Assembly: GCA_964540085.1 (NCBI GenBank)
Contig: CAZILO010000001.1
Coordinates: 9,470 to 36,271, forward strand
DNA: 26,802 nucleotides
Origin: an uncultured Thermotogae bacterium
GTDB lineage: Bacteria; Bipolaricaulota; Bipolaricaulia; UBA7950; UBA9294
Direction: 5' to 3'
Part shown: piece after piece, positions 1,377-25,890 of the stretch
How positions within the stretch are numbered: position 1 is the stretch's first letter
Layout of the letters: each line of letters begins with the position of its first letter
The notes under the pieces: generated by a model
What the model was told of the DNA's origin: nothing
Databases searched by the model: none
What the model saw: only the letters and a program-made list of their open reading frames with translations
Translations under genes and position numbers: made by a program

Positions 1377-1436
1377 AGGCACCTCCTTTAGACCCGTGAC
1401 TTTGCGCCCCCGACTTTCGTCGGGTTTGCCCTTTCA
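1358..1436 (-). ncRNA. c-di-GMP-I (GEMM-I) riboswitch aptamer overlapping the SD, start codon and first codons
   Basis: Minus strand reads GGGCAAA-CCCGAC-GAAA-GTCGGG-GGCGCAAA-GTC-A-CGG-GTC...GAC-AG-CCG-GAC-TACCG. It has the GNRA-capped P1b, the G20/C44/A47/C92 equivalents and a complementary P2. P1 is weak. Confidence 0.85.
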
Positions 1437-3476: not shown

Positions 3477-3535
3477 CGCAGCGGGCACCATTGACGTATA
3501 CTAATGACAGACTATAGTGGGGAAGTGATGACAAC

Positions 3536-4069
3536 ATGAAAAGAACGGCGCTGGTATTAATCGTGGTTGTACTGGCTATATCGGCGGTTGTTGTCGCCCA
3601 GCCCGCGTCGCAGCCGGCGAACATTGGGGCGTTAGATCGATACCTGGGAGCTTGGCAATCAAGCGCAGTCATCAATCCCTGTGTATGGGTGCCCAGCGGT
3701 GAACAACAACACACGATCGTCCAAGTCAGTTTGTTCCTTAACAGGAAATTCCTTCAGATGGTGTCTCTCAGCGAACACCAGGAGAGCCTGAGCCTTCTCC
3801 GTTATGATTCGCAAAAAGACATATATCAGATGTGGACGTATGATTCTAACGGCAACACGGGGTACTGGACCGGCGTTTGGGACAAAACTGCGCAAACCAT
3901 GACCTGGAAATATGCGTTGACATCAATAGTGGGAATAACGGGAGTAATAGTGGATCGATTCACCAGCGCGGATGCGTACAACACCGTGATGATAATGACC
4001 GATAGCCGTGGCAACCTGTTGTTGGACGTACAATCAGAGAGCGTCCGCAAAAAGCCATTTCATGGTTAG
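3536..4069 (+). CDS. Exported beta-rich protein, DUF1579-like
   Basis: Signal peptide, then GAW...FL...YDSQKDIYQMWTYDSNG..GYWTGVWD, which resembles DUF1579. Confidence 0.6.
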   Translation: MKRTALVLIVVVLAISAVVVAQPASQPANIGALDRYLGAWQSSAVINPCVWVPSGEQQHTIVQVSLFLNRKFLQMVSLSEHQESLSLLRYDSQKDIYQMWTYDSNGNTGYWTGVWDKTAQTMTWKYALTSIVGITGVIVDRFTSADAYNTVMIMTDSRGNLLLDVQSESVRKKPFHG

Positions 4070-4287
4070 GGGCGCATCTCGCCGCCGTGAGAGTTAAAAA
4101 CCAACGCCCCGAGTGTTGCATGCCGTAATGGCGTAGCTCGTCTGCGCCGGCCGTGTCTGAAGGAAAACCAATGCCGGAGATAAACTCTGCCACAATAAAA
4201 ACAGAATGCATGCCCTGACCTCGTTTGCGGGGTTACGGGGATTTCGGTATCCTTTATATATTCTGGATTTCGATAGGAGTGTAACTA

Positions 4288-6690
4288 ATGGGACGGATTG
4301 ATAAGACGTTCATCGAAGAGGAGATGGAGCAGTCGTACATCAACTACGCGATGAGCGTGATCCGCGGTCGTGCGATCCCCGACGTGCGTGATGGTTTAAA
4401 GCCGGTACAACGCCGGATTTTGTACGGGATGCATGAACTCGGCCTCACTCCGGGCAAGGCGCACAAGAAGTCGGCCCGCATTGTGGGAGAAGTGATGGGG
4501 AAATTCCATCCCCACGGGGACGCGGCGATCTACGACACGATGGTCAACATGGCGCAGCCGTTCTCCTACCGCTACCCGCTCGTCGACGGGCAGGGGAACT
4601 TCGGCTCGATCGACGGGGACGTCCCGGCAGCGATGCGTTATACCGAGGCACGCCTCACCCCAATCGCGACTGAATTCCTCGAGGAGCTCAACGAAGAAAC
4701 GGTCGAGTGGGTACCAAACTTCGACGACTCCCTCAAGGAGCCGGTCGTCCTCCCGGCCAAGGTTCCCAATCTGTTGATGAACGGGGCATGGGGAATATCG
4801 GTCGGGATGACGACCCAGATCCCGCCCCACAACCTGGGCGAGTTGATCGATGGTACTATCCATCTGATGGACCATCCCGAGGCAGCGGTACGTGATCTGA
4901 TGCAGTTTATCCCCGGACCTGACTTTCCCACCGGCGGGATCATTATGGGACGGGCCGGGATTGAAGAGATGTACCGCACTGGAACCGGAAAGATCACCGT
5001 CCGTGGAAAAGCGACGATCGAGGACGATCGAATCATCATCTCCGAGATCCCATACCAAGTGCGAAAATCATCACTGGTGGAGACAATCGCGGCCAAGGTC
5101 CACGCCGGTGAAATCGAGGGAATATCGGACTTACGCGACGAGTCAGACCGCGACGGATTGCGGATCGTCATCGAGTTGAAACGCTCTGCCAACCCCAATG
5201 TCATCCTCAACCGGCTGTACAAGTTCACCCCACTCGAGCGCACGTTTGCTGCGGTGTTTCTCGTCATCCTCGACGGCAATCCCCGTACTCTGTCCCTGAA
5301 GGAGATCCTGAACGCGTTCATTGACTTCCGCCGCGAGGTAGTGCGGCGTCGTACCGAGCATCGGCTGAAGGTGGCACGCGCCCGCGCCCACATCCTCGCC
5401 GGGTACATCAAGGCGCTGACGAACATCGAACGCGTGATCGAACTGCTGCGCGCGGCCAAGGATTCCGCGACTGCCGCTGCCCATCTGAAGGAAGAGCTCG
5501 ACCTCTCCGATGAGCAGACCGACGCCATTCTCAAGATGCGCCTATCACAATTGACTGGTCTGGAACGGGATAAAATCGACACCGAGTACAAGGAAAAGCT
5601 GGAGGAAATTGGGGGATATGAAAAGATCCTCGGGAGCGAGGAGCTCCTCGATGAGACGATCAAGCGTGAGTTGCGCGCGGTGGCGGATAAGCACGCCGAC
5701 GAGCGCCGCACCCTGATCACTGATGATGACGGCGAGGTCGACTTCATCAATCTGATCCCAGATTACGATTTAATGGTGTCCGTCACGCGTCGCGGCTACG
5801 CCAATGCACCGCGGGCCCAGGAATTTCGCAGCCAGGGACGGGGCGGCAAGGGGGTAATCGGCCAGCGCACCAAGGATGACGATTACATTTCCTGCTGTGC
5901 GCTGGCAAACGCACGCGACGAGATCCTCCTGTTCACCGACCGCCGTCGCGTGTACCGCACACAGGGATATCGGTTCCCGTCGGGCAAACGCGATTCGGTG
6001 GGGAAAAATCTGCGCAGTCTGATCGCGCTTGACCAGGATGAGATGGTGCGAGCGATTTTGCCGGTGTCTGACTTTTCCGAGGTGGAAGGGTGGTACTGTC
6101 TGATGGCGACCGAGAACGGAATCGTCAACCGCAATCGCCTCCGCGATTACGCCAACTCGCACGTAAATGGGATCATCGCGTTGAACGCCGACGAGGACGA
6201 TCACCTTGTCGATGTCGCCGCCACCACGGGAGACGGAGAGGTAATCATCGCCACCCATCATGGCAAGACGATCCGGTTCCGCGAGAGCGAGGTGCGCCTG
6301 ACCAAGCGCCCATCACGCGGGGTGATCGGAATCCGGCTCGAAGAGGGGGATCGGGTGATCGGAATGGCTCCGATCGAGCGGGACATCACGATGGACAAGA
6401 AACTCCTGATGGTTACGGAGCGTGGCTACGGAAAACGGGTGTCCCTCGTCGACTTTCCGCTCCAGGGCCGGGGTGGGAAGGGAGTGCTCGGGATCAAGCT
6501 CGACCGCGACTCCGGGCCGCTCGTGTCGATCGGGATCGTCTCCGACCAGGACGAGATTATCATCACCACCGAGCAGAAGGTGATCCGCATCCTCGCCGGC
6601 GACATCAACACCTACGGTCGTTACGCGCGCGGAGTGCGGCTGATCCAGCTCGAGGAGGATGACCGCATCGTGTCGGTCGTGCGCACGTAA
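4288..6690 (+). CDS. gyrA: DNA gyrase subunit A
   Basis: [22 protein letters not shown], catalytic AAMRYTE, GyrA-box-like QGRGGKG and C-terminal beta-pinwheel repeats; AGGAG SD. Confidence 0.97.
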
Positions 6691-6691
6691 C

Positions 6692-7882
6692 ATGAACTAC
6701 GAGAAAGTTGTCGATGAGTTCGCCGCCGGCGCGGCGGATCTGATCCCGCGGGAAGAGTTGGTGGAGAAGCTCCGCCGCTCCGATGAGTCAGGACAACCAC
6801 TCCGGGTGAAGCTCGGGATCGATCCGTCCGCTCCCCATTTGACGTTGGGACACTCGGTCCCACTCCGCAAGATGCGCCAGTTTCAGGACCTCGGCCACAC
6901 TGGCGTCCTCGTTGTCGGCGATTTCACCCGCAGGATCGGTGATCCGTCCGGCCGCGCCTCGACGCGGGCGCTGATGAGCGCTGATGAGATTGCCCGCAAC
7001 ATGGCGACGTACAAGGAGCAAGCGTTCAAGATCCTCGATCCCGATCGTACCGAGGTTCGCTACAACTCGGAATGGCTGGGAAAGCTGACGTTCGCCGATG
7101 TGATCACTCTCACCGCCAAGTACACCGTTGCCCGCATGCTCGAGCGCGATGACTTCGCAAAGCGGTTTGCCGAGAATCGGCCGATCAGCATCCTCGAATT
7201 CCTCTACCCGCTCGCCCAGGCGTACGACTCAGTGGCGATCCACGCTGACATTGAACTTGGTGGCGCCGATCAACTGTTCAACCTCCTCGTCGGTCGCGAG
7301 ATCCAGCGCGAGTACGGGCAGGACCCGCAAGTCGTCCTCACCGTGCCGCTTCTGATCGGGACGGACGGGACGCGGGCGATGAGCCAGTCGGTGGGAAACT
7401 ACGTCGGGATCTCCGAGCCGCCGACGGAGATGTTCGGAAAGCTGATGGCGATCCCCGACGAGCTGATCTCCGATTACTTCTTCTATCTGACCGACGTCCC
7501 CGAGGATGAGTACCGTGATCTTGCGCCCCGCGATGCGAAGCGGAAGCTGGCGTGGGAGATCGTGCGCATGTACCACGGGACGGAGGCGGCCGATGCCGCC
7601 CGGGACGAGTTCGACCGGATTCACATCCGTCACGAGCGCCCAAGTGAGGTCGCGCAGGTGCAGATTGATCGGTCACTGATAAAAGACGACGGTACGATCT
7701 GGATCGTTGACCTTCTCGCTGCCACCGGGCTGGTCAACAGCCGCGGCGAGGCAAAGCGGGTGGTCTCCCAGGGCGGGGTGCGAATTGACGGTGATAAGGT
7801 GACGTCGCTCGATTACGATCTCCCGTTTTCGCCGCCGCACTTGATTCAGGTGGGCAAACGCGCGTTCGTCGAGGTCGTATGA
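6692..7882 (+). CDS. tyrS: Tyrosine--tRNA ligase (with C-terminal S4 domain)
   Basis: VKLGIDPS, GDFT..IGDPSGR, EFLYPLAQAYDSV, DIELGGADQLFN and S4-like SRGEAKRVVSQGGVRIDG. ATG at 6692 lies 1 nt after the gyrA stop. Confidence 0.95.
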   Translation: MNYEKVVDEFAAGAADLIPREELVEKLRRSDESGQPLRVKLGIDPSAPHLTLGHSVPLRKMRQFQDLGHTGVLVVGDFTRRIGDPSGRASTRALMSADEIARNMATYKEQAFKILDPDRTEVRYNSEWLGKLTFADVITLTAKYTVARMLERDDFAKRFAENRPISILEFLYPLAQAYDSVAIHADIELGGADQLFNLLVGREIQREYGQDPQVVLTVPLLIGTDGTRAMSQSVGNYVGISEPPTEMFGKLMAIPDELISDYFFYLTDVPEDEYRDLAPRDAKRKLAWEIVRMYHGTEAADAARDEFDRIHIRHERPSEVAQVQIDRSLIKDDGTIWIVDLLAATGLVNSRGEAKRVVSQGGVRIDGDKVTSLDYDLPFSPPHLIQVGKRAFVEVV

Positions 7883-8259
7883 CTGCCTACCTCCTCATCG
7901 GCGAGGCACCAGCTCCGGAGATAGCAGCACGGGTTGCCGATCAGTACAAGAACTGTCCGTACGTTCACTTCATCGCCGCGTTCGGTACGATGCTCGTGGG
8001 CGTGTTTTACTTTCCTCCCGATCGCGAGTGGTGGATCAAACTCGTCGCCGATGAGCCCACGCTTACGTTGGGGCTACACCGGGCCGCAGTCTACAAGACA
8101 GATCATCCCGCTTACCCCGGAAGCTACTCGTTGCGCATTCCCGAACAGAAGGGCGATGTCGCCCCGTGCGGTTCGAAATGTATCGATTGTGAACGGTTTT
8201 CTACATGCTCCCACTGCCCGGCGACACGATACTATCTATTCGACGATCAGGTTGGGTGA
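7879..8259 (+). CDS. Small protein with a C-terminal Cys cluster (possible Fe-S or Zn binding), function unknown
   Basis: ATGA overlap with the tyrS stop; C-terminal C-x3-C-x2-C-x5-C-x2-CP (CGSKCIDCERFSTCSHCPAT). Confidence 0.7.
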   Translation: MTAYLLIGEAPAPEIAARVADQYKNCPYVHFIAAFGTMLVGVFYFPPDREWWIKLVADEPTLTLGLHRAAVYKTDHPAYPGSYSLRIPEQKGDVAPCGSKCIDCERFSTCSHCPATRYYLFDDQVG

Positions 8260-8628
8260 AAACCGGTCGGTGTCAGCGAGGAGAAACTCAGTGCTCAGCC
8301 CGAGCGCTCCGGTGGGGCAGATGTCCACGCACTGGTGACAGAACGTGCACCGCGCCACGTGGATGCGAATCTTCTTCTCGTCGGGCTTGAACATGATCAC
8401 GTTTGCCGGACAGACCTTGATGCACAGCTGGCAGCCGATGCACTTGTCACGATCGTAGGTGAGCTTGCCGCGGAGGTCGGTCGGCACCGGCACCGGCGGA
8501 TTGATCCGCGCCTCACCGCGCGCCACCCTTCCCAACAACCCGGTGACCGACTTCGGCATGTACTTAACCGGGAATGGGTTGGTAGCCGGCTTGTGCAGCA
8601 GCTGCTTGATGAGTGTCGCGAAGATCAC
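8236..8628 (-). CDS. mbhN: Membrane-bound hydrogenase 2x[4Fe-4S] subunit (NuoI-like)
   Basis: CIGCQLCIKVCP and CTFCHQCVDICP; last gene of the mbh cluster. Confidence 0.88.
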   Translation of the reverse strand: MIFATLIKQLLHKPATNPFPVKYMPKSVTGLLGRVARGEARINPPVPVPTDLRGKLTYDRDKCIGCQLCIKVCPANVIMFKPDEKKIRIHVARCTFCHQCVDICPTGALGLSTEFLLADTDRFSPNLIVE

Positions 8629-16321: not shown

Positions 16322-16942
16322 TCAATCCTTTCTCCCCACGATGATCCCGATCGTTCCATTGAACAGGGAATATCGCGATTCGATCCGGGGAATGCGCGGA
16401 ACTACCGCGTCGATTCCGCCGGCGCGTACGAACGCACGAAAGTTGTGAAAATGATCGCGCCCCGCCATCCGTTCGATCGCGTGAATAAATCCCCATGTGA
16501 AGTTCCAGCGCCGCGGGCGCGAGTACTCAGCGACAATTACAATCCCGCCCGGTCGCACTACCCGCACGGCCTCAGCAACCATCCGTTCACGGTCAGGAGC
16601 GGGATGTTCGTGCAGACATAAACTGAGAATCACCGCCGAGAAACTGCTATCGGGAAACGGCAATGAAAAGCCGGAACCAAGGACATAGTGAATTTCGGGC
16701 GGTCCGAGGCGACGAGCAACGGAAATCATCTCCGGGGACAAGTCGATTCCCGTGGTAACAATCCCAGCGGCATGCAGACTGCGGCACTGGGCACCGGTAG
16801 CACAGGCGATGTCGATGGCATCAGCTATCCGATGTGCCGTGCACAGCGACGTTATCTCGCGGCGAAGTGCGCGCAGAAGCGGATCGATCATGCGCGCGTA
16901 TATACGCGCACTGCCGCTGCCGTAGGTGGATGCTGGGGTCAC
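16322..16942 (-). CDS. Class I SAM-dependent methyltransferase
   Basis: AIDIACATG motif I, GIDLSPEMI, LPFPDSSFSAV, EAVRVVRPGG. GTG start overlaps the upstream stop (GTGA). Confidence 0.85.
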   Translation of the reverse strand: MTPASTYGSGSARIYARMIDPLLRALRREITSLCTAHRIADAIDIACATGAQCRSLHAAGIVTTGIDLSPEMISVARRLGPPEIHYVLGSGFSLPFPDSSFSAVILSLCLHEHPAPDRERMVAEAVRVVRPGGIVIVAEYSRPRRWNFTWGFIHAIERMAGRDHFHNFRAFVRAGGIDAVVPRIPRIESRYSLFNGTIGIIVGRKD

Positions 16943-19848
16943 TTTACCGTGATCGTATCCGTGAGCGAGTCGGTATTACCATCGTTGTCGGTGACGGTCA
17001 ACGTGACCTTGTATGTCCCGGCTGCAGTAAAGGTGTGGGTGACTTTTACTCCGGTGGCGTCCGGCTTGCCATCCCCGTTGAAGTCCCACGCGTACGCCAC
17101 GATCTTGCCGTCAAAGTCGAACGAATTGGACGCGTCGAACATCATGAGCTGACCGGCGGTGGGATGCTGCGGGGCATAGGTAAAGTCGGCGGTTGGCGGC
17201 TGGAACGTGATCACTACCTGCTTCGGCTTGATGTACCCCCCGATTGCAACGTGCGGTGCGGTCTGCGGAGTGATAGTAACCGTCACCTGCTTAGGAGTGG
17301 TGAACGTGAACCGCGGCGGCAGGGTGGTATCGTCGACGGACACCGTGTACTTCCCCGGTGTCAGGTTAGTAAACTCGAACCGGCCGGTGGCGGCGGTATC
17401 GGTATCGGCGGTGCTGCCCGCACCGGACAGGAGAATCCGCACTTGAGCAACCCCACCTTCACCGGGATCGTAGACCCCGTTCTTGTTAGTGTCATCGAAC
17501 AGGATCCCATCGAGATGAGCAATCGGAGCGAGCGGAACGTTGATTCCCGCAGTAATCCCGGGTTTAACGGTCACCTGCGGCGATGACGCTGGCGGCGCGG
17601 TATCGGACGGAAGATGGCTAATGGTAATGGTGTACGTCCCCGGTGCGCACGGCGGGAATCGGTAGTATCCGCTCGCATCGGTGGACACTTCGGTAATGCG
17701 GGTGGACACGATCGCGCCGGCAACCGGGCGATCGCCCGGATCGTAACGACCATTCCCGTTGACATCGATGAACACGCGCCCGCTGATCCTGCCCTTGGTA
17801 ACAAGGAACGGGACGGGCAAATCAAACCTCCATGTAAATGTCGTCCCCCACTGGAACGTGGCCGCACTCGCATCGTTTCTGTCCCATCCGATAGTCCCAG
17901 TCAGCCCGAGGGTGAGGGCATCGAGAAGCTGAACATTGCCAGTTACCGAAACGCTGAATGTGTCCGTACTGTTCGTCAGATTGATCTGGGCGGAGTGAAT
18001 GGAATTTTTCGCGTGAAACCGCAGGGAAACGTTGTCGCTGGTGGACAGGGTCGCCCCGGTGATGAGGTTGAGATTCTTGGTTTGGGCGAGGTTTAAGTAC
18101 AACGAGAATGCATCAGTCGATAACCCAATTCCCTCATTAAACGTCAGCGTCCGGTAGGAGGTAGCAGCGGCATGGTCGAGCTGATCGGACAGCTTACCAG
18201 AAAATGAGTACGGGAATGCGCCGGTCGTGTTTTGCAGTCCAACCGCGAGGAGACGGTCAATCTCGTTCTGTGCGGTGAGATCCGGCGCCCGTTTCCACGT
18301 GAACTCGCACGTACCGGTAATGGTGGGCCCATCTTTAAGCGGGGTGGACTGAAAGTTAAGCCCAAGGTCGTCAGTGATCGTTGTTGGCACGAGCGGGTCA
18401 CCGACGACGTTGTCCCACGTATGACTGAGCGACGCACGCAGGGAGAGATCGGTGGTGGTCAACCGTTGCGACACGGAGATGCCGGCCTGATCAGCACGGT
18501 CACCTGGGAAGTACGTGCCCACTGAGAATACCTCCCCGCTCAGGAAGTACGGAGTGGTATCGATTTTGGTGTTGAAGTACAGCGCGCGACTGGTGCGCCC
18601 ATCGTTGACCCCCAACGCCCCCTCGCCGCGGATCGTCCAGTCGGTGAGCGGTTCTGCCGCTGCCGACAGGCTCCACGCTGCAGCCCGAGTCGCCTGGTCC
18701 CGCTTGTCAAGGTAACCGATCCCGAAGTTGGCCTGCTGGGGACCGATGGATAGCAACCCGCCGAATCGCGTCTGTGCATCCTCACCACCGCCGATGAGAC
18801 GGATTCGATAGTTGTCGGCGTCGATGGTTACGCTTCCGCCGCGGCCGTATACGCTTAACAGGTCGGTGAGGCGAAGAAAGGTATCTCCAACCACGTACGT
18901 GGCCGGCGTCTTCCGGTATGTGAGGGTAAACGAACTCACTGTGACCGCTCCCGGGCCAAACAGCGGCCCGAGGTGCAACGTGGATGAGAAATACCCGGCG
19001 TACACACTGCCAGCGAGGGAAAAATACAAGTCGCTGCTGACGGCGTTGGTAAACAAGTTATGGTTAAATGAAAACTGCACTTGTGCTGACAGCACGTCGA
19101 GCAACGTCCCGCCCACTGCCTCGGGCGGGGGCGGCAGGATGGTGGTGAACCATACCTGCTCATCCTTGACCCCAGAATAGAGGGTGGAGTGGACGGACAC
19201 AGTGAGGAGATCTCGCCCTGGAGCGGCATCGGTGGGGACGGCGACGGTGATCGTTACCGTGCGACTTTCCTGGGGCGTGAGGCTGATTTGATCCGCGGAG
19301 ACGGTCACCGGAAATTGATGTGCCGACTGCGCGCTGATTCGGAGCGTATCCTGCGCATTCCCCTGATTGACGATCGTCACCGCGTACGCCGCTTTACCTC
19401 CGGGAGGAACGCTCTTTCCCTCGGGAGGGATGATCACTACCTTATTGACCGGCTTCACCTTCACTTGTGCGCTCGCACTCTGGTTGATTGCCGGATTGGT
19501 TGCAGACACGGCGTGTACGGTAATCGTGTACGTTTTCGCCGGCGCTCCCGCGGGAACGGTGATCGTGATGAACAGGGTTCCCTCTTCGCCCGGTTTGAGC
19601 GCAATATTTTGGGGGGCACCGAGTAAACTCCATCCGTTCGGGGTGTCGTAACTCAGATTAAACGTATCCGCGGCTGCTTCGCTGTTAGTCACTGCGAACA
19701 CGTGTGTAACAAACTCTCCGGGCGCCACCGTCTTAAGTCCGGACAGGACGTGCACTTCCACGCCAGCGCCAAGGCAGACCAGATTTACCAGAAGGACGAT
19801 GCCTCCCCATATCAATGCGGCTTTCAGCCCGAGCTTAACCGTGTCCAT
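16939..19848 (-). CDS. Large exported multidomain protein: two Ig-like domains, a central beta-strand-rich region (possible barrel/usher-like), two SdrD-B/CnaB-like domains and a C-terminal PKD domain
   Basis: Signal peptide; VTN...ADTFNL and VNQGNAQDTL Ig-like repeats; GRVFIDVNGNGRYDPGD and GILFDDTNKNGVYDPGE SdrD-B-like motifs; PKD (YAWDFNGDG, HTFTAAGTYKVTLTVTDNDG). The barrel assignment is inference. The start could be 19860. Confidence 0.7.
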   Translation of the reverse strand: MDTVKLGLKAALIWGGIVLLVNLVCLGAGVEVHVLSGLKTVAPGEFVTHVFAVTNSEAAADTFNLSYDTPNGWSLLGAPQNIALKPGEEGTLFITITVPAGAPAKTYTITVHAVSATNPAINQSASAQVKVKPVNKVVIIPPEGKSVPPGGKAAYAVTIVNQGNAQDTLRISAQSAHQFPVTVSADQISLTPQESRTVTITVAVPTDAAPGRDLLTVSVHSTLYSGVKDEQVWFTTILPPPPEAVGGTLLDVLSAQVQFSFNHNLFTNAVSSDLYFSLAGSVYAGYFSSTLHLGPLFGPGAVTVSSFTLTYRKTPATYVVGDTFLRLTDLLSVYGRGGSVTIDADNYRIRLIGGGEDAQTRFGGLLSIGPQQANFGIGYLDKRDQATRAAAWSLSAAAEPLTDWTIRGEGALGVNDGRTSRALYFNTKIDTTPYFLSGEVFSVGTYFPGDRADQAGISVSQRLTTTDLSLRASLSHTWDNVVGDPLVPTTITDDLGLNFQSTPLKDGPTITGTCEFTWKRAPDLTAQNEIDRLLAVGLQNTTGAFPYSFSGKLSDQLDHAAATSYRTLTFNEGIGLSTDAFSLYLNLAQTKNLNLITGATLSTSDNVSLRFHAKNSIHSAQINLTNSTDTFSVSVTGNVQLLDALTLGLTGTIGWDRNDASAATFQWGTTFTWRFDLPVPFLVTKGRISGRVFIDVNGNGRYDPGDRPVAGAIVSTRITEVSTDASGYYRFPPCAPGTYTITISHLPSDTAPPASSPQVTVKPGITAGINVPLAPIAHLDGILFDDTNKNGVYDPGEGGVAQVRILLSGAGSTADTDTAATGRFEFTNLTPGKYTVSVDDTTLPPRFTFTTPKQVTVTITPQTAPHVAIGGYIKPKQVVITFQPPTADFTYAPQHPTAGQLMMFDASNSFDFDGKIVAYAWDFNGDGKPDATGVKVTHTFTAAGTYKVTLTVTDNDGNTDSLTDTITVK

Positions 19849-19940
19849 ATCGTACACCACAGTAGACGATACGGACGCACGAAGAAAGGACCAATAAAAG
19901 CGGGCAACTGGACGTTTGTCGCTCCTGAGGGTGATATCCG

Positions 19941-21098
19941 TTACTTCACGCGGAACGCACGTTGTCCGCCGACCTCGGTGGCGCCGCCGTAGTCGATCGC
20001 GGCGCGGGCGAGATAAATCCCAGGCGGCAGCGGCTTACTGGATGTATCCTTCACGGTGACAACAGCGGTTGCGCCGGGCAAAACAGGAAACTGCTCAATC
20101 GGAATCTTCCGCATCGTCTCACCCCGTTGGGAGATGATCGTGATCGACCCCGTCGGTCGCAGTTGGACGTTACCCGTGTTTTCAAACGTAACAGTAAACG
20201 TAAGTGGATCAAGAGCCGCCACGCGCACGTCCGTAACCCGCCCTGATTTGATCTCGGTGCCGGTGATGGTAACGTACACTTTTATTCCGAACTCCTCCTT
20301 CGCTGCAATGACAACCCCATTGTGCTGACCAATTATCCTGGGAAGACCATCGACCATGATTGCAGCCCAGTACATCCCGCTGACGCCGGTACGGGGAACG
20401 TGCACCGTAAACGACACCCGCTGCCGTTTACCAGGATCGATGGTGAATTTCTGCGGGGTGACAGTAATCCAGTCTCCGTCGGAACGGGCAACGGTGGTGA
20501 ACTCCCCTCCGGCGGCGGCCACCGATTCGACCGTGACATGGCGGGAGAACACCTCATCAATGCGCATGCCGGTAACCGCTTTTAGGACATGGACAGTTAG
20601 CTGCACGCGTTGGGCACCGGGAACGGTTGGGGATGGTGTAATCGCACGGGTGATCTCCACCGGGCCCGCCGTGGCGACGGATGCGGTGGAACCGGTCCCC
20701 GCTAGCGTGGACGGACCGGCGATTTTACCGTACGCCGCCGGAGAGCCGGTGACGTAGCTACCAGTAATTGTAACCCCGTTAAACGGCGGCAGCACCCGGT
20801 ACGTAATCGTGAATACATCCCCGGGCGCGAACTGGCGAGGAAACAGCCAATATGCATCGTTCAGCGTGAAGAAGTACGTCTTTCTCTCGGGAGGAAAACG
20901 GACCCAGTCGTTCAGATAGACAGTGATTTCCTGCGCCCGTGACTCATCGTTTATTACCAGAAACGAATAGCTCGACGTGCTGCCCGCAGCGAGATGAAGG
21001 TCAAACTCGAATGGCAAAACCTGCAACGCCGCTGCGGATAAAGAAACGCCGATAATTGCCCCAATAATTAATCCAGTTACGATAGTCGTCCGCTGCAT
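19941..21098 (-). CDS. Exported pilus chaperone-like protein (PapD-like / DUF916-DUF3324 WxL-interacting-like)
   Basis: Signal peptide; WITVTPQKFTIDPGKRQRVSFTVHVP..GMYWAAIMV, FENTGNVQLRPTGSITI and LPPGIYLARAAIDYG. GGAGG SD supports ATG 21098. Confidence 0.65.
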   Translation of the reverse strand: MQRTTIVTGLIIGAIIGVSLSAAALQVLPFEFDLHLAAGSTSSYSFLVINDESRAQEITVYLNDWVRFPPERKTYFFTLNDAYWLFPRQFAPGDVFTITYRVLPPFNGVTITGSYVTGSPAAYGKIAGPSTLAGTGSTASVATAGPVEITRAITPSPTVPGAQRVQLTVHVLKAVTGMRIDEVFSRHVTVESVAAAGGEFTTVARSDGDWITVTPQKFTIDPGKRQRVSFTVHVPRTGVSGMYWAAIMVDGLPRIIGQHNGVVIAAKEEFGIKVYVTITGTEIKSGRVTDVRVAALDPLTFTVTFENTGNVQLRPTGSITIISQRGETMRKIPIEQFPVLPGATAVVTVKDTSSKPLPPGIYLARAAIDYGGATEVGGQRAFRVK

Positions 21099-21133
21099 TG
21101 TCGCCTCCATTCGGGTAGTGGATATACTTAAGT

Positions 21134-22094
21134 CTATCTCGTAGTTACAGTGTATTGCAACGTTATCCCGTACGTGCCCGCTCGATCAGCAATGTCGGGT
21201 TGATAGCGGTATGAAATGCGGTGCGTCTCCCCGCCGGGATCGGTGCGCGATACGAGTGTCACCGGCGTCGTGTTCAATCCGGCCGCCGAGTGAAACGCGC
21301 CATCGTCGACACGCCAGTAGAAGTTAGTGAGGAGATCGCCGCTGAATCCGGGCGGAGTCGTTATTGCTGTTGCCTCCAGTTGCAGCTGCCAACCAGACGG
21401 CGGGTTCCCGATCACAAACACGGGGTTGTCATCGCTCTCCAGCGGGGTAAGTTTCCCGGTACGCACATCGTACAACGGCCCCTGTGACCGTGCCCAGATC
21501 GATTGCTCCGTGAGCGGCAACGACGATCCACGCCTGCACCGTCCAAGTGATAGTGACGTCTTGGCTGACCGTATACAGCAGGTAACCGAAGATCGAAGCC
21601 GCCACCTGATACCGCAACGTGATGGAATACGTACCGGGGAGGTCGGCGGCACTCGGCAAGTAACGATAGTCGATGGTCTCCGCATCCGTTCCGGTGGCAT
21701 TACTCCCGTTAACGACGGTCATCGGCGTTTGCACTCCCGGGAACACGGTATAGCTCGGTTGATCGCCACCGCGCCAGTAAAACCGGGTCAAATCAACTCC
21801 CGGTGAGGTAGCCACGATTTCCACCGTAAGCGTCCAATCCAGGGTTAACCAACCATTACGAGTTACGTTGACCGCGTTGTTGTCCGCCTCAATCGGAACG
21901 AACTGACCGTCACCGGTGGGAGTGGGATCGTGATACACGGATGCGTTAACCGTTCCCAAGTCAACATCGGAATGAACAGTAAGACAAGTATAGTCACCGA
22001 ACCGACCATCGCATGTCGTACCTGCAGCGGCGATAAATACCGCCACGGTAACCGCAATAGTCGCGATAAGCAACATGGAACCGCGTTTTATCAT
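21134..22094 (-). pseudogene. Two-domain pilin/adhesin-like exported protein split by a single-base frameshift
   Basis: ORFs 21429-22097 and 21134-21700 join into one frame (IDLGTVTG|PLYDVRTG) if one G is removed from the minus-strand GGGG at 21479-21482. The joined segment aligns without gaps to paralog VDLGTIDGGLYDPATN. Confidence 0.75.
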
Positions 22095-22096
22095 CA

Positions 22097-22133
22097 AAAG
22101 TAAACTCGAGGGCGGCCGTGACGACCGCCCTCG
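22097..22133 (-). terminator. Probable intrinsic terminator after the 22149-22670 subunit gene
   Basis: Minus-strand stem CGAGGGCGGTCG / CGGCCGCCCTCG followed by AGTTTACTTTT. Confidence 0.6.
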
Positions 22134-22148
22134 CTGAGGCGCAACTAG

Positions 22149-22670
22149 TTACGGTGACGTCAACGTGTACGTCACGGTGACGGCGTAGGCACCGGGAGCA
22201 TCATCCCAGCTTGGGATGTACTCGTACTGGATATCGCTGATGTGAGTGAGTCCCGGCCCGCCGGTGCTCAACGTTTGATCGCTGGCAAGCGGGGTAAATG
22301 AAGACAAAGCGCCTCCCTTCACCTCGAACCGCGACAGATCAGCAGTATTCGTGCCCGTGCTTGCGGCATGCAGAGTGAGCGTATAGTTGGTGTTGCTGAT
22401 TACGTACGCATTTTTGGCCTTCGAGGTAAGCGGCGTCCACGTATTGGTAGCGGGATCGTACAAGCCTCCATCAATCGTTCCAAGGTCAACGCTCATATCA
22501 GCAGTCGGGATGTAGAGCACGATCCAGTTCTGCACACTCCACATTACCACCGGCAACAAACTCCCCGACAGCGGGGTTGCTCCACTGTCCGTTGCCGTAT
22601 CCGCCATCACACCTACTGTAACTAACATCAACCCGCCAATTACAGCGAGCAAGAAGAATAGCCTCTTCAT
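22149..22670 (-). CDS. Exported pilin/WxL-like subunit (candidate major subunit)
   Basis: Signal peptide; MWSVQNWIVL..VDLGTI, SNTNYTLTLHA and C-terminal DDAPGAYAVTVTYTLT shared with neighbours. AGGAGG SD supports ATG 22670. Confidence 0.7.
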   Translation of the reverse strand: MKRLFFLLAVIGGLMLVTVGVMADTATDSGATPLSGSLLPVVMWSVQNWIVLYIPTADMSVDLGTIDGGLYDPATNTWTPLTSKAKNAYVISNTNYTLTLHAASTGTNTADLSRFEVKGGALSSFTPLASDQTLSTGGPGLTHISDIQYEYIPSWDDAPGAYAVTVTYTLTSP

Positions 22671-22675
22671 CAAAA

Positions 22676-22728
22676 GCACCTCCTAATGGTTTAATTTTCG
22701 AGCACCTAGCAGCTCTGCCACCATTAGG
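22676..22728. repeat. 53-bp translation-initiation cassette, near-identical (49/53) to 23511-23563
   Basis: gcacctcctaatggtttaattttcgagcacctagcagctctgccaccattagg versus gcacctcctaatggtttgattttcgagcacctagcgactcggccaccattagg. Confidence 0.9.
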
Positions 22729-22868
22729 TACGCCACGGTAGCCCGACAATCTCACGTGAGATTCGCGGCTTTGCGCCCCAGGATCGCTCCTGGTTTGCCT
22801 TTTTCGTCGTCACCCATAGGCCGTAGCTTTGCGCCCCACCCTTTCGGAATGGTTTGCCCTTCAGTGCT
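22701..22868 (-). ncRNA. Outer c-di-GMP-I aptamer of nested pair B
   Basis: 5' half AGCACTGAAGGGCAAACCATTCC-GAAA-GGGTGGGGCGCAAAGCTACGGCC; 3' half GGTGGCAGAGCTGCTAGGTGCT lies about 100 nt downstream. P1 AGCACT/GGTGCT is slightly out of the canonical register. Confidence 0.7.
22735..22807 (-). ncRNA. Inner, complete c-di-GMP-I aptamer of nested pair B
   Basis: ACG-AAAAA-GGCAAA-CCAGGA-GCGA-TCCTGG-GGCGCAAA-GCCGCG-AATCTC-ACGT-GAGATT-GTCGGGC-TAC-CGT; canonical P1 register with G20. Confidence 0.88.
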
Positions 22869-22950
22869 TATTGAGATGAGGCTGATACCAAACTCAACTT
22901 ATATTGCGGTCTGTTTCTAATAACCACCTCCTTATAATTGTTACAAGGAT

Positions 22951-22979
22951 ATTGTACCGCTTAACTAATTGTTCGTCAA
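22951..22979 (-). promoter_or_regulatory. Sigma70-type promoter for the 22149-22670 gene and downstream operon
   Basis: TTGACG (22979-22974), 17-nt spacer, TACAAT (22956-22951). Confidence 0.75.
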
Positions 22980-23026
22980 GTGGTACAAATCTCCCTTCTG
23001 GTGAACCGAGACGGATAGAATCCGCA

Positions 23027-23052
23027 GGGCCGACAGGAATCCCCGCCGGCCC
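23027..23052 (-). terminator. GC-rich hairpin 3' of the 23074-23505 gene (terminator or mRNA stabiliser)
   Basis: GGGCCGGCGGG-GATT-CCTGTCGGCCC; two G-U pairs work only on the minus strand. The U-tract is poor. Confidence 0.45.
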
Positions 23053-23073
23053 CTTCGCTCTTCATCCGTTAGC

Positions 23074-23505
23074 CTACTTGGTAGTGACGGTGTAAGTAAC
23101 GATCGTGGCATAAGTACCGGGAGCCATCGCCCGCAGGTTAAATAAGGTGTAGTTTACGCCGACCTTAGCATCGTTCTTCCCATTGTACGTGGACAGACCA
23201 ACTTTCAGGTGGTCACTGCCGTTACCGGACAGGGAAACGGTAAGGGACCAACTGGTATTGCTGTACACGAACAGGGTGTTTGCGTTTTCCTTGGCAACTT
23301 CGTCGACACCTGCCGGAATTGCGCCAAAGTCGAATGCGGTGTCTGCGATCTTGAGCTCGACGAACCCTTGGATCGTCCAGCTGATCTTGTCCTCTACGGA
23401 GACAGAATTGCTATGATTATGACCATTGGCGAACCCGGCGAGCCCGATCATCGCCACTGCCAAACCCAGCACCAACAGACCTACGATAAGTTTATTCATC
23501 CTCAT
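23074..23505 (-). CDS. Exported pilin/WxL-like subunit
   Basis: Signal peptide; ISWTIQGFVELKI..FDFGAI, SNTSWSLTVS and C-terminal MAPGTYATIVTYTVTTK. AGGAGG SD supports ATG 23505. Confidence 0.7.
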   Translation of the reverse strand: MRMNKLIVGLLVLGLAVAMIGLAGFANGHNHSNSVSVEDKISWTIQGFVELKIADTAFDFGAIPAGVDEVAKENANTLFVYSNTSWSLTVSLSGNGSDHLKVGLSTYNGKNDAKVGVNYTLFNLRAMAPGTYATIVTYTVTTK

Positions 23506-23535
23506 TGAAAGCACCTCCTAATGGTTTGATTTTCG

Positions 23536-23723
23536 AGCACCTAGCGACTCGGCCACCATTAGGCAAGCTGCGGCAACCCGGCTGTCTGCTGTGAGACCCG
23601 TGGCTTTGCGTCCCGAGGTCACCCTCGGTTTGCCCTTATCACAACACCCCACACGGGGCTTTGCCTAGAAGGTCCGTAGCTTTGCGTCCCGCCCTTTCGA
23701 ACGGTTTGCCTTTTGTAGGTGCT
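23536..23723 (-). ncRNA. Outer c-di-GMP-I aptamer of nested pair C
   Basis: P1 AGCACCTA/TAGGTGCT (8 bp), J1/2 CAAAA then G20, P1b CCGTTC-GAAA-GGGCGG, GACGCAAA, P2 GCT-A-CGG-ACC / GGT-GG-CCG-AGT, then CGC containing the C92 equivalent. Confidence 0.85.
23567..23645 (-). ncRNA. Inner, complete c-di-GMP-I aptamer of nested pair C
   Basis: GTTGTG-ATAAG-GGCAAA-CCGAGG-GTGA-CCTCGG-GACGCAAA-GCCACGGGTCT...AGAC-AG-CCGGGT-TGC-CGCAGC; near-consensus. Confidence 0.92.
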
Positions 23724-23814
23724 TCGCTGAGGACGTAGTGCATTGCAGCAATTGAGCTGCAATCTTTAAAACAATGTGAATTTATACAGAGGGGAACAAG
23801 TAACCGAAAACTTT

Positions 23815-23954
23815 CGGCAGCCCGGCGATCTCCCGTTGATTTAGCATCCGTTATGTCCTTGAGTTAATAACCTCTAAGAACACTTAAGAACACTCGCAAA
23901 TCTGAGAGACCCGTGGCTTTGCGTCCCCTCCTTACGAAGGGTTTGCTTTTTTCG
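23815..23954 (-). ncRNA. GEMM-I aptamer with A at position 20 (candidate c-AMP-GMP variant) and a 73-nt P2 extension
   Basis: CG-AAAAA-A-GCAAA-CCCTTC-GTAA-GGAGGG-GACGCAAA-GCCACGGGTCTC...GAGAT-CG-CCGGGC-TGC-CG; position 20 corresponds to base 23947. Confidence 0.82.
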
Positions 23955-23989
23955 CTGTCTCGGTTCACTTGTCAATGACCATCGCTCTT

Positions 23990-23995
23990 ATTATA
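23990..23995 (-). promoter_or_regulatory. -10 element (TATAAT) at the head of the three-aptamer leader
   Basis: Perfect TATAAT 35 nt upstream of the A20 aptamer; -35 unclear. Confidence 0.55.
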
Positions 23996-24043
23996 CCGCG
24001 TAGCGGATGGTTTTAGACATATTGACCGAGTGAACAAATTTAA

Positions 24044-24697
24044 TCACTTATTTGCCGGAGGAAACAAGTTTTTGGCGAGAAGGCTCTGCAATGAAGAGAG
24101 TTTTTCCAGTGCGGAGGCAATGCGGATGCGATACTGAATTGGAAACGGATCCGGCCGCTTGCTCCTGATCTTGGCCAGGTCTATCTTGGGAGTAGGGTCG
24201 GTGGCACGTTTCTCCGCGCTCAGGGAGACGTAATTAATCGCTTCGCGCGCCTTGAAAATTTCGGTAATTCCCTCCTCAGTAATGTTGACCGCATCGGCAA
24301 GTTCGCTTAGTGTGGGGAGATGGCCGGTTTCCCGAAGTAGGCGCGCCTCGGCCATCTCGAGTTGGCGGTTCAAATCCTGCAAAAACCGGGGAATGTATGC
24401 CTGATGCGCGTGATCGCGGATGTACTGTCGGATCTCGCCGGTGATCAAGTTCTTCGCGTACTCGGAGAATTCCTTACCCCGCGCGAGGTGGATGTTATAC
24501 ACCGCGTTCAATAGCCCGAGATAGCCGGCATGGAACAGCTCATCATGGGTAAATCCACTGTGGGCAAACGCGCTCGCGATTACAGTCTCCACCCACTGCC
24601 TCCCCCGCGCCAGCAGTTCATTGCGGGCGGATTCATCGCCGGCTGTCACCCGGGCGAGGAGCTCGTTGAGAGAAGCATCATCGTTGTTCATAGTCAC
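24044..24697 (-). CDS. Sigma-70 family factor (SigB/SigF/SigG-like) with regions 2 and 3 but lacking the region-4.2 HTH
   Basis: GDESARNEL, DELFHAGYLGLLNAV, FSEYA...ITGEIRQYIRD, IPR, LPTLSELADAVNI and VSL. The protein ends soon after RIASALEKL. The start is GTG 24697 or ATG 24691. Confidence 0.8.
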   Translation of the reverse strand: MTMNNDDASLNELLARVTAGDESARNELLARGRQWVETVIASAFAHSGFTHDELFHAGYLGLLNAVYNIHLARGKEFSEYAKNLITGEIRQYIRDHAHQAYIPRFLQDLNRQLEMAEARLLRETGHLPTLSELADAVNITEEGITEIFKAREAINYVSLSAEKRATDPTPKIDLAKIRSKRPDPFPIQYRIRIASALEKLSSLQSLLAKNLFPPANK

Positions 24698-24699
24698 TG

Positions 24700-25890
24700 T
24701 TAAAATGCTAGTTCAAATCCGAAACTCGCACTGGTAATCCCGGTAAAGTCGAACTGTACCGTTGTGGACAGCGTGATGCCGGAGAATTTAACACGGGCGG
24801 TGATCCGTTCGCCGGTAAATCCGGTCAGATCGAACGACGTGTAGCTGGTGAACGTAACCGGATCAATTGTCGCCTCAATTCCGAACAACTGCTGCGAGAA
24901 CATGAAATTACCGTCGAAGTCGGTCTCGGAGATGGCGGTGAATCCCTTACACACATACGATAACGCGAACCGCTGCCCGGAAAACACGACGGGAATCGGC
25001 AACGGCGGTGTGGGCGCGGAGAAACTGGTCTCGGACGTAAACCGCACCGGATCGATCTGAATATCGAGGATAAAATCAAGCCCACTCAACGAGAATGAAT
25101 GATCAACCGTAACGGAAGTGAGGAACGCGATATTTGGCTCGGTGAATTGGTACCCAAGCTCGGCAATCTCCTGGGCAAATCCGGACGTATCAAGCCACGT
25201 AGTACTGCTCGCCAGCAACCCACATGTATCGACCTCGAACCGCACTAACTCCTGCTCAAAGTAAAATCCGGGAACGATCGTTACCCGCCACACCGGCGGT
25301 GGCCCGGACAGTGATCCAAGCTGATTAAACAGGTACAGCAATTTATCGGTAAATGGCGCGCTTACCCCGCCCAGGGTGTTTACGAGGTCGGTTGCGCCGA
25401 ACCCAGTAACGGAGGTGATAGAAAATCCGCTCACTACACCACTTTTGAGCGTGAGGACCGCTCCCATGCTGTACGTCGGTGTCTGAACGGTTCCGATGTC
25501 CGCGAGGATCAGGTCAAGCCCGAGCTCGACTCCCACGATTTGTCCGGCGACGGAAAAGTCATTCCAATTGAACCGAGGATTGAACAGAATGTCGTTGCCG
25601 ATCGTAAATGCGCCCAGGTTGAGTGAGCAATCAACCCCGAGCGATTGAAATCCCGAAAGGTCAAACGCGGTCTGTGTGCTGACGGAGAATCCGGCAATCT
25701 GGAGTGCGGCAGAGATGTTCGTTGTAAGGTTGTAAGCGGTCGGTGGAATCGGAGCAAACGTAAATTCAACACCTACTTTTCCGGAGAACGTGTCGCTGCC
25801 ACAGTTCGCGCATTCTCCGAACGCAAGTGTTCCTCCAACTAGAAGTAAAACAAAAAGCACCACGATTATTCGATAATTCATCCGTCGCAT
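24700..25890 (-). CDS. Exported beta-strand-rich protein, probable outer-membrane/envelope protein
   Basis: Signal peptide, alternating hydrophobic strands, internal repeats (IDPVRFTSETSF / IDPVTFTSYTSF) and a C-terminal Phe; GGAGGAGG SD. Confidence 0.65.
   Translation of the reverse strand: MRRMNYRIIVVLFVLLLVGGTLAFGECANCGSDTFSGKVGVEFTFAPIPPTAYNLTTNISAALQIAGFSVSTQTAFDLSGFQSLGVDCSLNLGAFTIGNDILFNPRFNWNDFSVAGQIVGVELGLDLILADIGTVQTPTYSMGAVLTLKSGVVSGFSITSVTGFGATDLVNTLGGVSAPFTDKLLYLFNQLGSLSGPPPVWRVTIVPGFYFEQELVRFEVDTCGLLASSTTWLDTSGFAQEIAELGYQFTEPNIAFLTSVTVDHSFSLSGLDFILDIQIDPVRFTSETSFSAPTPPLPIPVVFSGQRFALSYVCKGFTAISETDFDGNFMFSQQLFGIEATIDPVTFTSYTSFDLTGFTGERITARVKFSGITLSTTVQFDFTGITSASFGFELAF

Follow-up and report, generated by a model that had tools for sequence, protein, structure and literature searches.

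Does the gene cluster at positions 16939 to 23505 of a stretch of Bipolaricaulota DNA encode a pathway for the assembly of surface fibres and, if so, to which known system is it related? The stretch that was analysed (26,802 nucleotides of contig CAZILO010000001.1, positions 9,470 to 36,271; hereafter, the window) comes from a metagenome-assembled genome (MAG) of Candidatus Bipolaricaulota, and its nearest public sequences are MAGs labelled Candidatus Bipolaricaulota or Acetothermia; subunit 1 of the cluster is 94% identical to its counterpart in the related locus L004. Bipolaricaulota are reported to be diderm, with a toga-like outer membrane. Pili were observed on the first isolate of the phylum (bioRxiv 10.1101/2025.11.21.689855), and an earlier genome study that included a closed genome found no pilus or adhesin genes (PMC6092417). 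A preliminary description of the window, made from its letters alone, had proposed an uncharacterised surface-filament system in a little-studied lineage. The lineage is indeed such a one, and the open reading frames (ORFs) agree with the gene coordinates 16939–23505 and the minus-strand co-orientation given there.

It is proposed here, with a confidence somewhat above even, that the cluster exports and assembles WxL-like subunits by a chaperone-usher-like pathway which is under cyclic-dinucleotide control; the surface product is probably a thin fibre. The cluster appears to be an undescribed relative of both the chaperone-usher pili and the Gram-positive WxL surface system. The genes on which the argument is built are the following.

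23074–23505, minus strand: subunit 1, 143 amino acids (aa) from the ATG, with a signal peptide, the N-terminal strand K-I-S-W-T-I-Q and an immunoglobulin (Ig)-like sandwich
22149–22670, minus strand: subunit 2, 173 aa, with a signal peptide and the N-terminal strand V-M-W-S-V-Q
21134–22094, minus strand: gene 3, two domains, frameshifted and read as two overlapping ORFs
19941–21110, minus strand: helper of 389 aa, with a signal peptide and a pair of Ig-like domains, the first of which has an insertion of about 125 aa
16939–19848, minus strand: 969-aa usher-like protein, with a signal peptide and a predicted outer-membrane barrel

The order on the minus strand is p396 (a secreted protein), sigma factor, leader, subunit 1, leader, subunit 2, gene 3, helper, 969-aa protein, methyltransferase and Mrp antiporter genes. 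The signal peptides of all cluster proteins were assigned by eye. Pfam and NCBIfam scans covered all cluster proteins, 18 subunits, 12 helpers and 45 barrel proteins and returned only generic Ig-type matches; when the PDB was searched by sequence and by profile, no significant match to the subunits, the helper, the barrel or p396 emerged.

A predicted barrel protein with usher-like architecture

The start of the large gene is supported by its orthologues, which begin at the same ATG. The AlphaFold2 (AF2) model of the product, based on an alignment of 53 sequences, has a mean confidence (pLDDT) of 89.8, rising above 94 in the barrel region, so that fold and architecture are confidently predicted. 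It consists of a signal-peptide helix, two Ig domains (residues 30–132 and 137–237), a beta region of 26 consecutive strands of 10–20 residues with short loops (250–683) and three beta-sandwich domains (686–775, 777–873 and 885–969). Most of the strands alternate hydrophobic and polar residues. Pfam recognizes two Ig domains of the NEW3/FixG_C type, two SdrD_B domains and one PKD domain, and has no match for residues 239–686, inside which the 434-aa beta region lies. Between them, Pfam and AF2 recover the Ig, beta-rich, SdrD-B-like and PKD parts that had been named from the translation. A barrel with a plug had also been expected: the barrel is predicted with high confidence, but the plug is not, as DSSP analysis of the model shows 26 contiguous hairpin-linked strands with loops of at most 11 residues and no domain inserted among them.

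When the whole chain was compared with the PDB by Foldseek, FimD and PapC were the top matches (E 5e-15 to 2e-11 over 730–800 columns), values that are inflated by the Ig arrays, because Hydin also scores about 1e-13. With the barrel taken alone, the template modelling (TM) score is 0.51 for the FimD pore (3ohn) and 0.46 for the PapC pore (2vqi), and 0.31–0.35 for TonB-dependent barrels. The model thereby predicts a trait of ushers, namely a large barrel with beta-sandwich domains on both its N-terminal and C-terminal sides, and the protein is presumably located in the outer membrane. These data bear on the proposal that the barrel is a nutrient or solute channel, the small proteins being unrelated secreted binding proteins and the usher likeness a generic one of large barrels. 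Such a channel would fit the barrel-only Foldseek E-values for ushers (2.6e-7 and 3.8e-6), which are similar to those of TonB-dependent receptors; it is highly improbable in view of the TM scores, of the missing plug or TonB-box region, of the usher-like position of Ig-like domains on both sides of the barrel and of the recurrent linkage with the helper that is described below.

At the level of sequence, the Pfam models Usher (PF00577), PapC_N and PapC_C have no match in the window protein at E ≤1e-1 (that is, 0.1) and none at E ≤1e-3 in 45 family members, and a profile search with the barrel family against PDB sequences gave nothing. The family itself is sizeable. A word-indexed search with the barrel region found 7 partial proteins only and an exhaustive profile search was needed; it yielded 77 representatives, most of them 850–1000 aa long, with the region at the same position. 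The 45 that were scanned with Pfam carry the same flanking domains, and the source names include Bipolaricaulia and Fraserbacteria. Among the homologues, the number of C-terminal PKD repeats varies, and total length ranges from 855 to about 1600 aa.

The helper, the subunits and the WxL proteins

The gene directly upstream encodes the 389-aa helper, a candidate periplasmic chaperone. The preliminary description had seen in it a DUF916/DUF3324-like partner, and this holds in the sense of a remote relative of WxLIP. WxLIP_PGBD (DUF916) gives weak sub-threshold matches in 11 of 12 helper members (best E 1.2e-6), and the seven members with listed scores all lie at 16.8–19.1 bits, below the cut-off of 27.3 bits. 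When the helper family was aligned by hhalign with Firmicute WxLIPs, taken from WxL clusters of Lactiplantibacillus, Bacillus thuringiensis and Melissococcus plasmids, the match extended over both domains (Prob 88.5, E 2.7e-6, 206 columns; reversed control 0.11), and the family profile is collinear with the solved EfmWxLIP1 (PDB 9i25 and 9i1y). The pair DUF916 (PGBD) and DUF3324 (HBD) is thus reached solely at the level of remote homology. PapD_N matches one of the twelve members, a compact one, at E 1e-3, which is below the cut-off. Within the cluster itself, the helper is similar to the two N-terminal Ig domains of the 969-aa protein (hhalign E 8.8e-5). The insertion of about 125 aa in domain 1 is carried by the Bipolaricaulia members. 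The helper family has no C-terminal membrane helix and ends directly after domain 2 or in a dockerin, whereas the WxLIPs of three of the Firmicute loci (L021–L023) have a hydrophobic helix at the C-terminus. It was proposed, based on AlphaFold, that DUF916 (WxLIP) inserts a strand into WxL (PMC10599100); this is also the nearest paper in a literature in which none was found that connects WxL systems with ushers or donor strands.

Several observations on helper relatives were made along the way. The dockerin that ends the distant homologues is of type I (L015 4652–5698, L016 2913–4379 and L018 6387–7424), and two of these loci, L015 and L016, encode an additional protein with a dockerin or PKD domain between the helper and barrel genes. 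No Pfam Cohesin match is on record for the neighbours in these two loci, and cohesin-like domains are not claimed for them. In L009 (3376–4479) and L010 (10731–11801) a further helper copy is present, shorter and with a match to the C-terminal half only, between the subunit-1 paralogues and a 6-kb insert; an additional divergent subunit gene lies on the opposite strand. A search hit, H1, in CP069367.1 (labelled as a Klebsiella pneumoniae plasmid; 101758–102277) is unannotated and shares 94% protein identity with Enterococcus faecium WxLIP1, which suggests that the record is mislabelled or chimeric.

The three genes upstream of the helper encode, as had been noticed at first sight, four related domains (BLASTP E 3e-6 to 7.5e-19). 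Subunit 2 matches the second and first domains of gene 3 at E 3.5e-14 and 1.5e-10, the two domains of gene 3 match each other at 7.5e-19, and subunit 1 matches subunit 2 at 3e-6. The D[LF]G and C-terminal G-x-Y...Y-T-V motifs are present in all four domains; W-x-[VI]-Q, which had also been claimed as shared, occurs in three of them but not in the first domain of gene 3. That domain, which contains a C-x9-C pair, has no N-terminal W-x-[VI]-Q strand in three orthologues either, and the linker has the strand instead (I-T-W-T-V-Q, preceding domain 2). The product of gene 3 is a candidate tip or initiator subunit. Three subunit genes are present, as described, but gene 3 is frameshifted in the window: relative to the intact gene of L004 (84% identical DNA), one nucleotide is inserted in a GGGG run at 21482–21479, so that positions 21476–21485 (minus strand) read ACAGGGGCCG against ACAGGAG-CG in L004, and this yields two overlapping ORFs. 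The gene is a single intact two-domain ORF in L004 and L008–L010. The insertion could be a true pseudogene mutation, a homopolymer assembly error or a phase-variable site.

Subunit 1, the candidate major subunit, has 31 close homologues, none with a Pfam domain, and its W46 is invariant. A profile built from 18 diverse subunits finds 65 proteins, again none with a Pfam domain or an informative name, and orthologues of subunit 2 are present in every related locus. The AF2 model of subunit 1 shows an Ig-like sandwich at residues 48–146 (pLDDT >87); residues 1–47 (pLDDT <50) are unfolded and include K-I-S-W-T-I-Q with the invariant Trp. This monomer model with a loose N-terminal strand is consistent with donor-strand exchange. 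The top Foldseek matches, all of them marginal, are subunits of donor-strand filaments (TLP-1a, CfaB, FimA, Caf1, a Sulfolobus thread and CanA) and folds of the PapD/MSP type. Matches of subunit 1 to SAKe were dismissed, as they lie inside the hydrophobic N-terminal signal-peptide region and no stretch passes alone. It is also worth noting that this region (VGLLVLGLAV...; window 23505–23425, residues 1–27) is conserved more strongly than the rest of the protein: it does not vary among homologues whose overall identity is no more than 50–60%. For a Sec signal this is unusual, and it may be due to a dedicated peptidase or to a constraint at the RNA level beside the expression platform.

The relation of the subunits to WxL domains is less clear than that of the helper to WxLIP. 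The preliminary description had said that their motifs recall WxL: a weak collinear hhalign signal agrees with this, but Pfam WxL matches no subunit (window, 18 diverse subunits and 65 homologues). Against plasmid-borne WxL domains in sets of four or nine, the subunits score E 1.5e-4 over 112 columns (four domains) and E 1.2e-4 to 8e-4 (nine), with a collinear global alignment of 142 columns; reversed-sequence controls give 0.09–0.4. Enlarging the WxL alignment from four to nine sequences made the signal no stronger, and it is taken as suggestive. The second W-x-L motif of WxL has Y or F instead of W in the subunits. Comparison with E. coli FimA, FimI, FimF and FimG was not significant (E 0.4–0.7), and Fimbrial (PF00419) and SCPU (PF05229) match none of the 18 diverse subunits. 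Kinship with WxL, which is not proven by the subunits alone, becomes likely because a WxLIP-like gene adjoins; as judged from sequence, the subunit-helper pair is likely to be a remote relative of the WxL/WxLIP pair.

The cluster might instead encode a WxL-type surface or periplasmic complex without any filament, in which WxL-like binding modules are held on the envelope by a WxLIP-like helper and the 969-aa protein is an outer-membrane scaffold or adhesin, its Ig, SdrD_B and PKD domains organizing the complex. We regard this as rather unlikely. In its favour, WxLIP and WxL are nearer relatives than FimC and the Fim pilins, both for the helper and, with a weaker signal, for the subunits; the dockerin tails of helper homologues and the dockerin- or PKD-bearing neighbours suggest tethering; and a variable PKD count and length in the barrel homologues are more stalk-like than the fixed C-terminal domains of ushers. 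However, a 26-strand barrel is far bigger than an anchor needs and resembles translocation pores, and the membrane-anchored WxLIP and the LPXTG protein of WxL clusters are both absent here. Polymerization is also a better fit for the two-domain fusion and for a conserved N-terminal strand that the monomer model leaves unfolded.

Gene linkage, aptamers and neighbouring genes

In every locus where the contig allows it to be seen, the subunit genes are followed by the helper. The helper and barrel genes are found together, the helper first (adjacent, one gene apart or about 2–3 kb apart) in at least 12 loci, drawn from the window, L001, L004–L006, L012, L015–L018, L027, L056 and L057. This linkage is recurrent, as barrel identity across these loci falls from 93% to about 25% and the surroundings are unrelated. 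In L017, L018 and L056, with about 25–30% barrel identity, the helper lies directly upstream of the barrel with gaps of 8–90 nt; one extra gene intervenes in L015 and L016, and the gap in L057 is about 2.8 kb. The co-occurrence that the preliminary description had proposed to survey across genomes is recurrent but not obligatory. In a metagenome survey of 50 loci with barrel homologues, the helper was upstream of the barrel gene in only 3; L008 has subunits and a helper with no barrel gene within 5.7 kb; and the notion that helper and barrel always occur together was rejected on these two grounds.

At least 27 of the 50 surveyed homologues follow an alpha-2-macroglobulin (A2M) gene, with no helper or subunit beside them. 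The A2M proteins (about 2180 aa; L059 and at least 26 others among L028–L075) form one BLAST family, of which the L059 member (2029–8571) was scanned with Pfam and shows Big_5, MG2, A2M, TED and bMG10, that is, a bacterial alpha-2-macroglobulin; the others were assigned by their BLAST family. An Mrp gene (MnhG) lies downstream in L059, like the Mrp genes downstream of the window barrel gene. The order in L075 is p396, sigma factor, an A2M-like ORF of about 2000 aa (same BLAST family as the L059 protein) and barrel; the subunit-helper module of the window therefore stands where other loci have A2M. In L019, the barrel gene occurs by itself.

It might be assumed from this that the 969-aa protein is a general resident platform of the outer membrane, and that adjacency reflects a chromosomal slot (p396, sigma factor, X, barrel, Mrp) in which X is either A2M or the subunit-helper module, the subunits and helper acting alone or with another exporter. 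The gene order of L075, the A2M genes directly upstream of the barrel in the metagenome loci with Mrp downstream in L059, the solitary barrel of L019 and the barrel-less module of L008 all speak for it. We nevertheless find it decidedly unlikely. The helper is immediately upstream of the barrel in unrelated contexts (L017, L018, L056) and near it in three more (L015, L016, L057), a recurrence that is hard to explain without a functional link, and the N-terminal Ig pair of the barrel protein resembles the helper.

The claim of cyclic-dinucleotide control is derived from the RNA elements in front of the subunit genes, which are listed here from upstream to downstream, the subunit 1 gene being gene 1 and that of subunit 2, gene 2.

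23812–23956, minus strand: first aptamer of the gene-1 leader, a full GEMM-I one whose P2 carries a long insertion (RF03167, 63.8 bits, gathering score 59)
23674–23719, minus strand: short module, a P1 hairpin with a GAAA loop and no P2 (RF01051 38.2 bits, RF03167 38.1)
23568–23643, minus strand: full GEMM-I aptamer beside the gene-1 expression platform (RF03167, 69.6 bits)
23517–23563, minus strand: putative Shine-Dalgarno-sequestering hairpin of gene 1, CCUAAUGGU (23563–23555) pairing with ACCAUUAGG (23525–23517), overlapping AGGAGG
22951–22979, minus strand: sigma-70-like promoter match TTGACG-17-TACAAT ahead of the gene-2 leader (consensus scan 10/12; pattern match only)
22818–22867, minus strand: short P1-only module of the gene-2 leader (RF03167 23.6 bits, E 0.0078, below gathering; core motif conserved)
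22733–22808, minus strand: full GEMM-I aptamer of the gene-2 leader (RF03167, 63.4 bits)
22682–22728, minus strand: putative Shine-Dalgarno-sequestering hairpin of gene 2, a second near-identical copy (arms 22728–22720 and 22690–22682)
22107–22133, minus strand: terminator-like hairpin after gene 2 with a 12-bp stem (pattern match only)

Five aptamers upstream of the cluster had been counted before. There are five modules, but three are full and two are short and P1-only, and they are split over two leaders; the intergenic region of genes 1 and 2 contains two of them, so that each of these genes has its own leader. The short module at 23674–23719 exceeds the gathering score of RF01051 (35) and lies directly upstream of the next full aptamer. 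The sequestering hairpin of gene 1 forms part of the minimum-free-energy fold; folding of the leader gave a z-score of -0.43, with no clear anti-sequestrator.

GEMM-I aptamers (RF03167 or RF01051) precede nearly every subunit gene in 12 related loci (L001, L004–L011, L013, L015 and L018, with 48 further matches), and in these loci the helper and barrel genes are never preceded by one. The link between aptamers and subunit genes is thus deeply conserved. In the usual unit, a short module with a GAAA loop stands before a full aptamer whose loop is GYGA (GCGA or GUGA); the short modules are 49–70 nt long, sometimes without P2, and 5–25 nt upstream of the full aptamer. Such composite units were seen at 22733–22867 and 23568–23719 of the window and in L001, L004–L011, L015 and L018; since distant loci have kept this arrangement, the half aptamers probably have a function and are not products of decay. 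All 59 P1 modules carry CGCAAA, the RF01051 consensus. The aptamers score best on the variant RF03167 (c-di-GMP-I-GGC), yet they carry A where its consensus has G (ACGC-A/G-AAG). The conserved A is presumably the adenine that intercalates between the ligand bases in Vc2 structures, and because of this correspondence the ligand is likely to be cyclic di-GMP (c-di-GMP). Nothing usable was found in the literature on the ligand of the c-di-GMP-I-GGC variant.

Other signs of cyclic-dinucleotide signalling were encountered. A GGDEF gene flanks the cluster of L015. A separate canonical c-di-GMP-I aptamer at 1357–1440 of the window (minus strand, 79.8 bits) precedes an ORF at 519–1382 (minus strand), whose product, secreted and about 280 aa long, is Ala/Thr/Gly-rich, has a His/Pro/Lys-rich tail and is matched by no Pfam model. 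An Rfam scan of six Firmicute WxL loci detected no riboswitch, and the idea of a riboswitch theme shared with them was rejected. One of these loci, on a Bacillus thuringiensis plasmid, has an HD-GYP gene (L022 1746–2852; c-di-GMP phosphodiesterase type) just upstream of the LPXTG-WxL-WxLIP cluster, with no riboswitch there.

The cluster is flanked by the following genes.

24700–25890, minus strand: p396, a 396-aa secreted beta-rich protein ending in FGFELAF (ORF and translation)
24044–24697, minus strand: SigB/F/G-type sigma factor, 217 aa (Pfam Sigma70_r2 and r3)
16322–16942, minus strand: class I methyltransferase of the UbiE type, dependent on S-adenosylmethionine (Pfam Methyltransf_11, E 2.9e-21)

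The p396 and sigma factor genes overlap by 4 nt and are co-transcribed. p396 has no Pfam, NCBIfam or PDB match and may be an outer-membrane protein. Its orthologues stand upstream of the cluster in L001 and L004–L006 and upstream of the A2M-barrel pair in L075, so that the p396-sigma pair (window 24044–25890; L075 556–2563) precedes the subunit cluster and the A2M-barrel pair alike. The sigma factor matches NCBIfam TIGR02980 at E 4e-29 (profile positions 2–180 of 227); regions 2 and 3 are matched, the C-terminal part is without a match and there is no recognizable region 4. Its position is conserved across related loci. On the other side, the methyltransferase gene shares 4 nt with the large gene at the stop codon of the latter, and it is kept downstream in L001, L004–L006 and L027. 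There is no gene for an LPXTG protein within 16939–25890.

The proposed pathway and its place among known systems

A number of results have to be set against a chaperone-usher-like pathway. Sequence models for ushers, PapD chaperones and pilins all fail to match the cluster proteins. The AF2 barrel has no inserted plug domain, the whole-chain E-values for ushers are inflated and the barrel-only ones resemble those of TonB-dependent receptors. The comparison of the helper with FimC by hhalign gave E 0.12, and a dockerin at the end of some distant helper homologues is unusual for a soluble chaperone. Just one of five AF2 models of subunit 1 is confident, and its Foldseek search of the PDB gave no match reaching E 1e-3. 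The sparse helper in the 50-locus survey, the prevalence of A2M there and the module of L008 point the same way. Filament formation is not known for the WxL proteins of Firmicutes. On sequence grounds, the cluster was rejected as a member of the classical chaperone-usher systems, Pfam being negative and the hhalign comparisons with FimC and the Fim pilins insignificant. The chaperone-usher layout proposed in the preliminary description accordingly holds for the barrel architecture and the top FimD/PapC matches, but no Usher, Fimbrial or SCPU match accompanies them, and PapD gives one weak match in twelve.

If the cluster is nevertheless such a pathway, then it might work as follows. Subunits 1–3, the 389-aa helper and the 969-aa protein would be exported by Sec. 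In the periplasm, the helper would bind and cap fresh subunits. Flanking the outer-membrane barrel at either end, the Ig-like domains would take up helper-subunit complexes and pass the subunits outward, and the N-terminal W-x-[IV]-Q strand of each subunit would complete the fold of the preceding one. The product of gene 3, whose first domain has no donor strand and whose linker has one, could occupy the distal tip. The tandem GEMM-I aptamers would gate translation of subunits 1 and 2 via the hairpin that sequesters the Shine-Dalgarno sequence, and if they do so, then fibre production should follow the level of a cyclic dinucleotide, most likely c-di-GMP.

A wider proposal joins several parts and, taken as a whole, we think it unlikely to hold. 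In it, the WxL clusters of Firmicutes would have their diderm counterpart in this locus, and WxL and WxLIP would be homologous to a subunit-chaperone pair that was once partnered with an usher-like pore, and the monoderm Firmicutes would have kept the pair after loss of the outer membrane. The barrel proteins would constitute a novel class of usher-like translocon that lacks a plug and occurs in Bipolaricaulota and their relatives, with WxL-like fibres or alpha-2-macroglobulin as cargo. The fibres, finally, would account for the pili, so far unexplained, that were seen at the ends of the toga in the first Bipolaricaulota strain to be cultured. Independently of this proposal, the cluster is a concrete candidate for the pili on that isolate, in a phylum without previously found pilus or adhesin genes, and the family of the 969-aa protein, whose 77 representatives are annotated only as generic Ig domains, is a new candidate for an outer-membrane translocon. 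If the pathway is as proposed, then usher-type assembly extends to proteins missed by all current sequence models; the WxL and WxLIP proteins of lactobacilli, enterococci and Listeria gain a mechanistic and evolutionary frame, that of a subunit with a strand-donating helper; and cyclic-dinucleotide riboswitches, repeated gene by gene, are tied to a surface appendage in a deep-branching phylum.

Among known systems, the chaperone-usher pili (FimA/FimC/FimD and PapA/PapD/PapC; archaic Csu and CupE) share with the window the small secreted Ig-like subunits, the two-Ig helper and the large barrel. As in these pili, the N-terminal strand of the subunits is conserved and their C-terminal strand is of the form G-x-Y...Y, and the best structural matches of the large protein are FimD and PapC. 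FimH and PapG are two-domain subunits without a donor strand; gene 3, with two domains and the first of them lacking a donor strand, can be likened to both. The differences are also considerable. The barrel has 26 predicted strands against 24 in ushers and no inserted plug, its flanking domains are of the NEW3/FixG_C, SdrD_B and PKD types, the helper has 389 aa with a large insertion, the barrel gene is often without helper or subunits, and the host is a Terrabacteria diderm with a toga-like outer membrane.

The WxL/WxLIP clusters (Csc of Lactiplantibacillus and the WxL loci of Enterococcus faecium) are the second relative. The helper aligns with WxLIP over both domains, and the subunits share with WxL domains the motif order D/F-x-G, W-x-L-x-V and C-terminal G-x-Y...[WY]-x-[LV]. 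In the WxL plasmid loci L021, L022 and L024–L026, as in the window, a small and a larger subunit gene adjoin the helper gene. Unlike WxL proteins, the window subunits have no Pfam WxL match and the helper has no C-terminal membrane helix; unlike WxL clusters, the window has no LPXTG protein, has an outer-membrane barrel partner and belongs to a diderm host. The six Firmicute WxL loci that were scanned differ from the window in having no riboswitches.

Filaments that are joined by donor strands without an usher (Bacillus TasA, Sulfolobus threads, Pyrodictium cannulae and the environmental TLP-1 fibrils) rank among the top, if marginal, structural hits of subunit 1. In such filaments, the TLP-1 fibril included, Ig-like subunits are joined by an N-terminal donor strand (PMC11494351). 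In contrast to the window, they have neither an outer-membrane platform nor a WxLIP-like helper, and the likeness is one of fold only (E ≥1.4e-3).

With respect to control, the closest parallel is found in a different type of appendage. The type IV pilin gene pilA1 of Clostridioides difficile is under c-di-GMP riboswitch control. The window resembles it in carrying an aptamer of the c-di-GMP class in the leader of an appendage subunit gene, and differs from it in that the aptamers are of the GEMM-I type, stand in tandem as short and full units, are repeated ahead of each of several subunit genes and are followed by a platform that looks translational.

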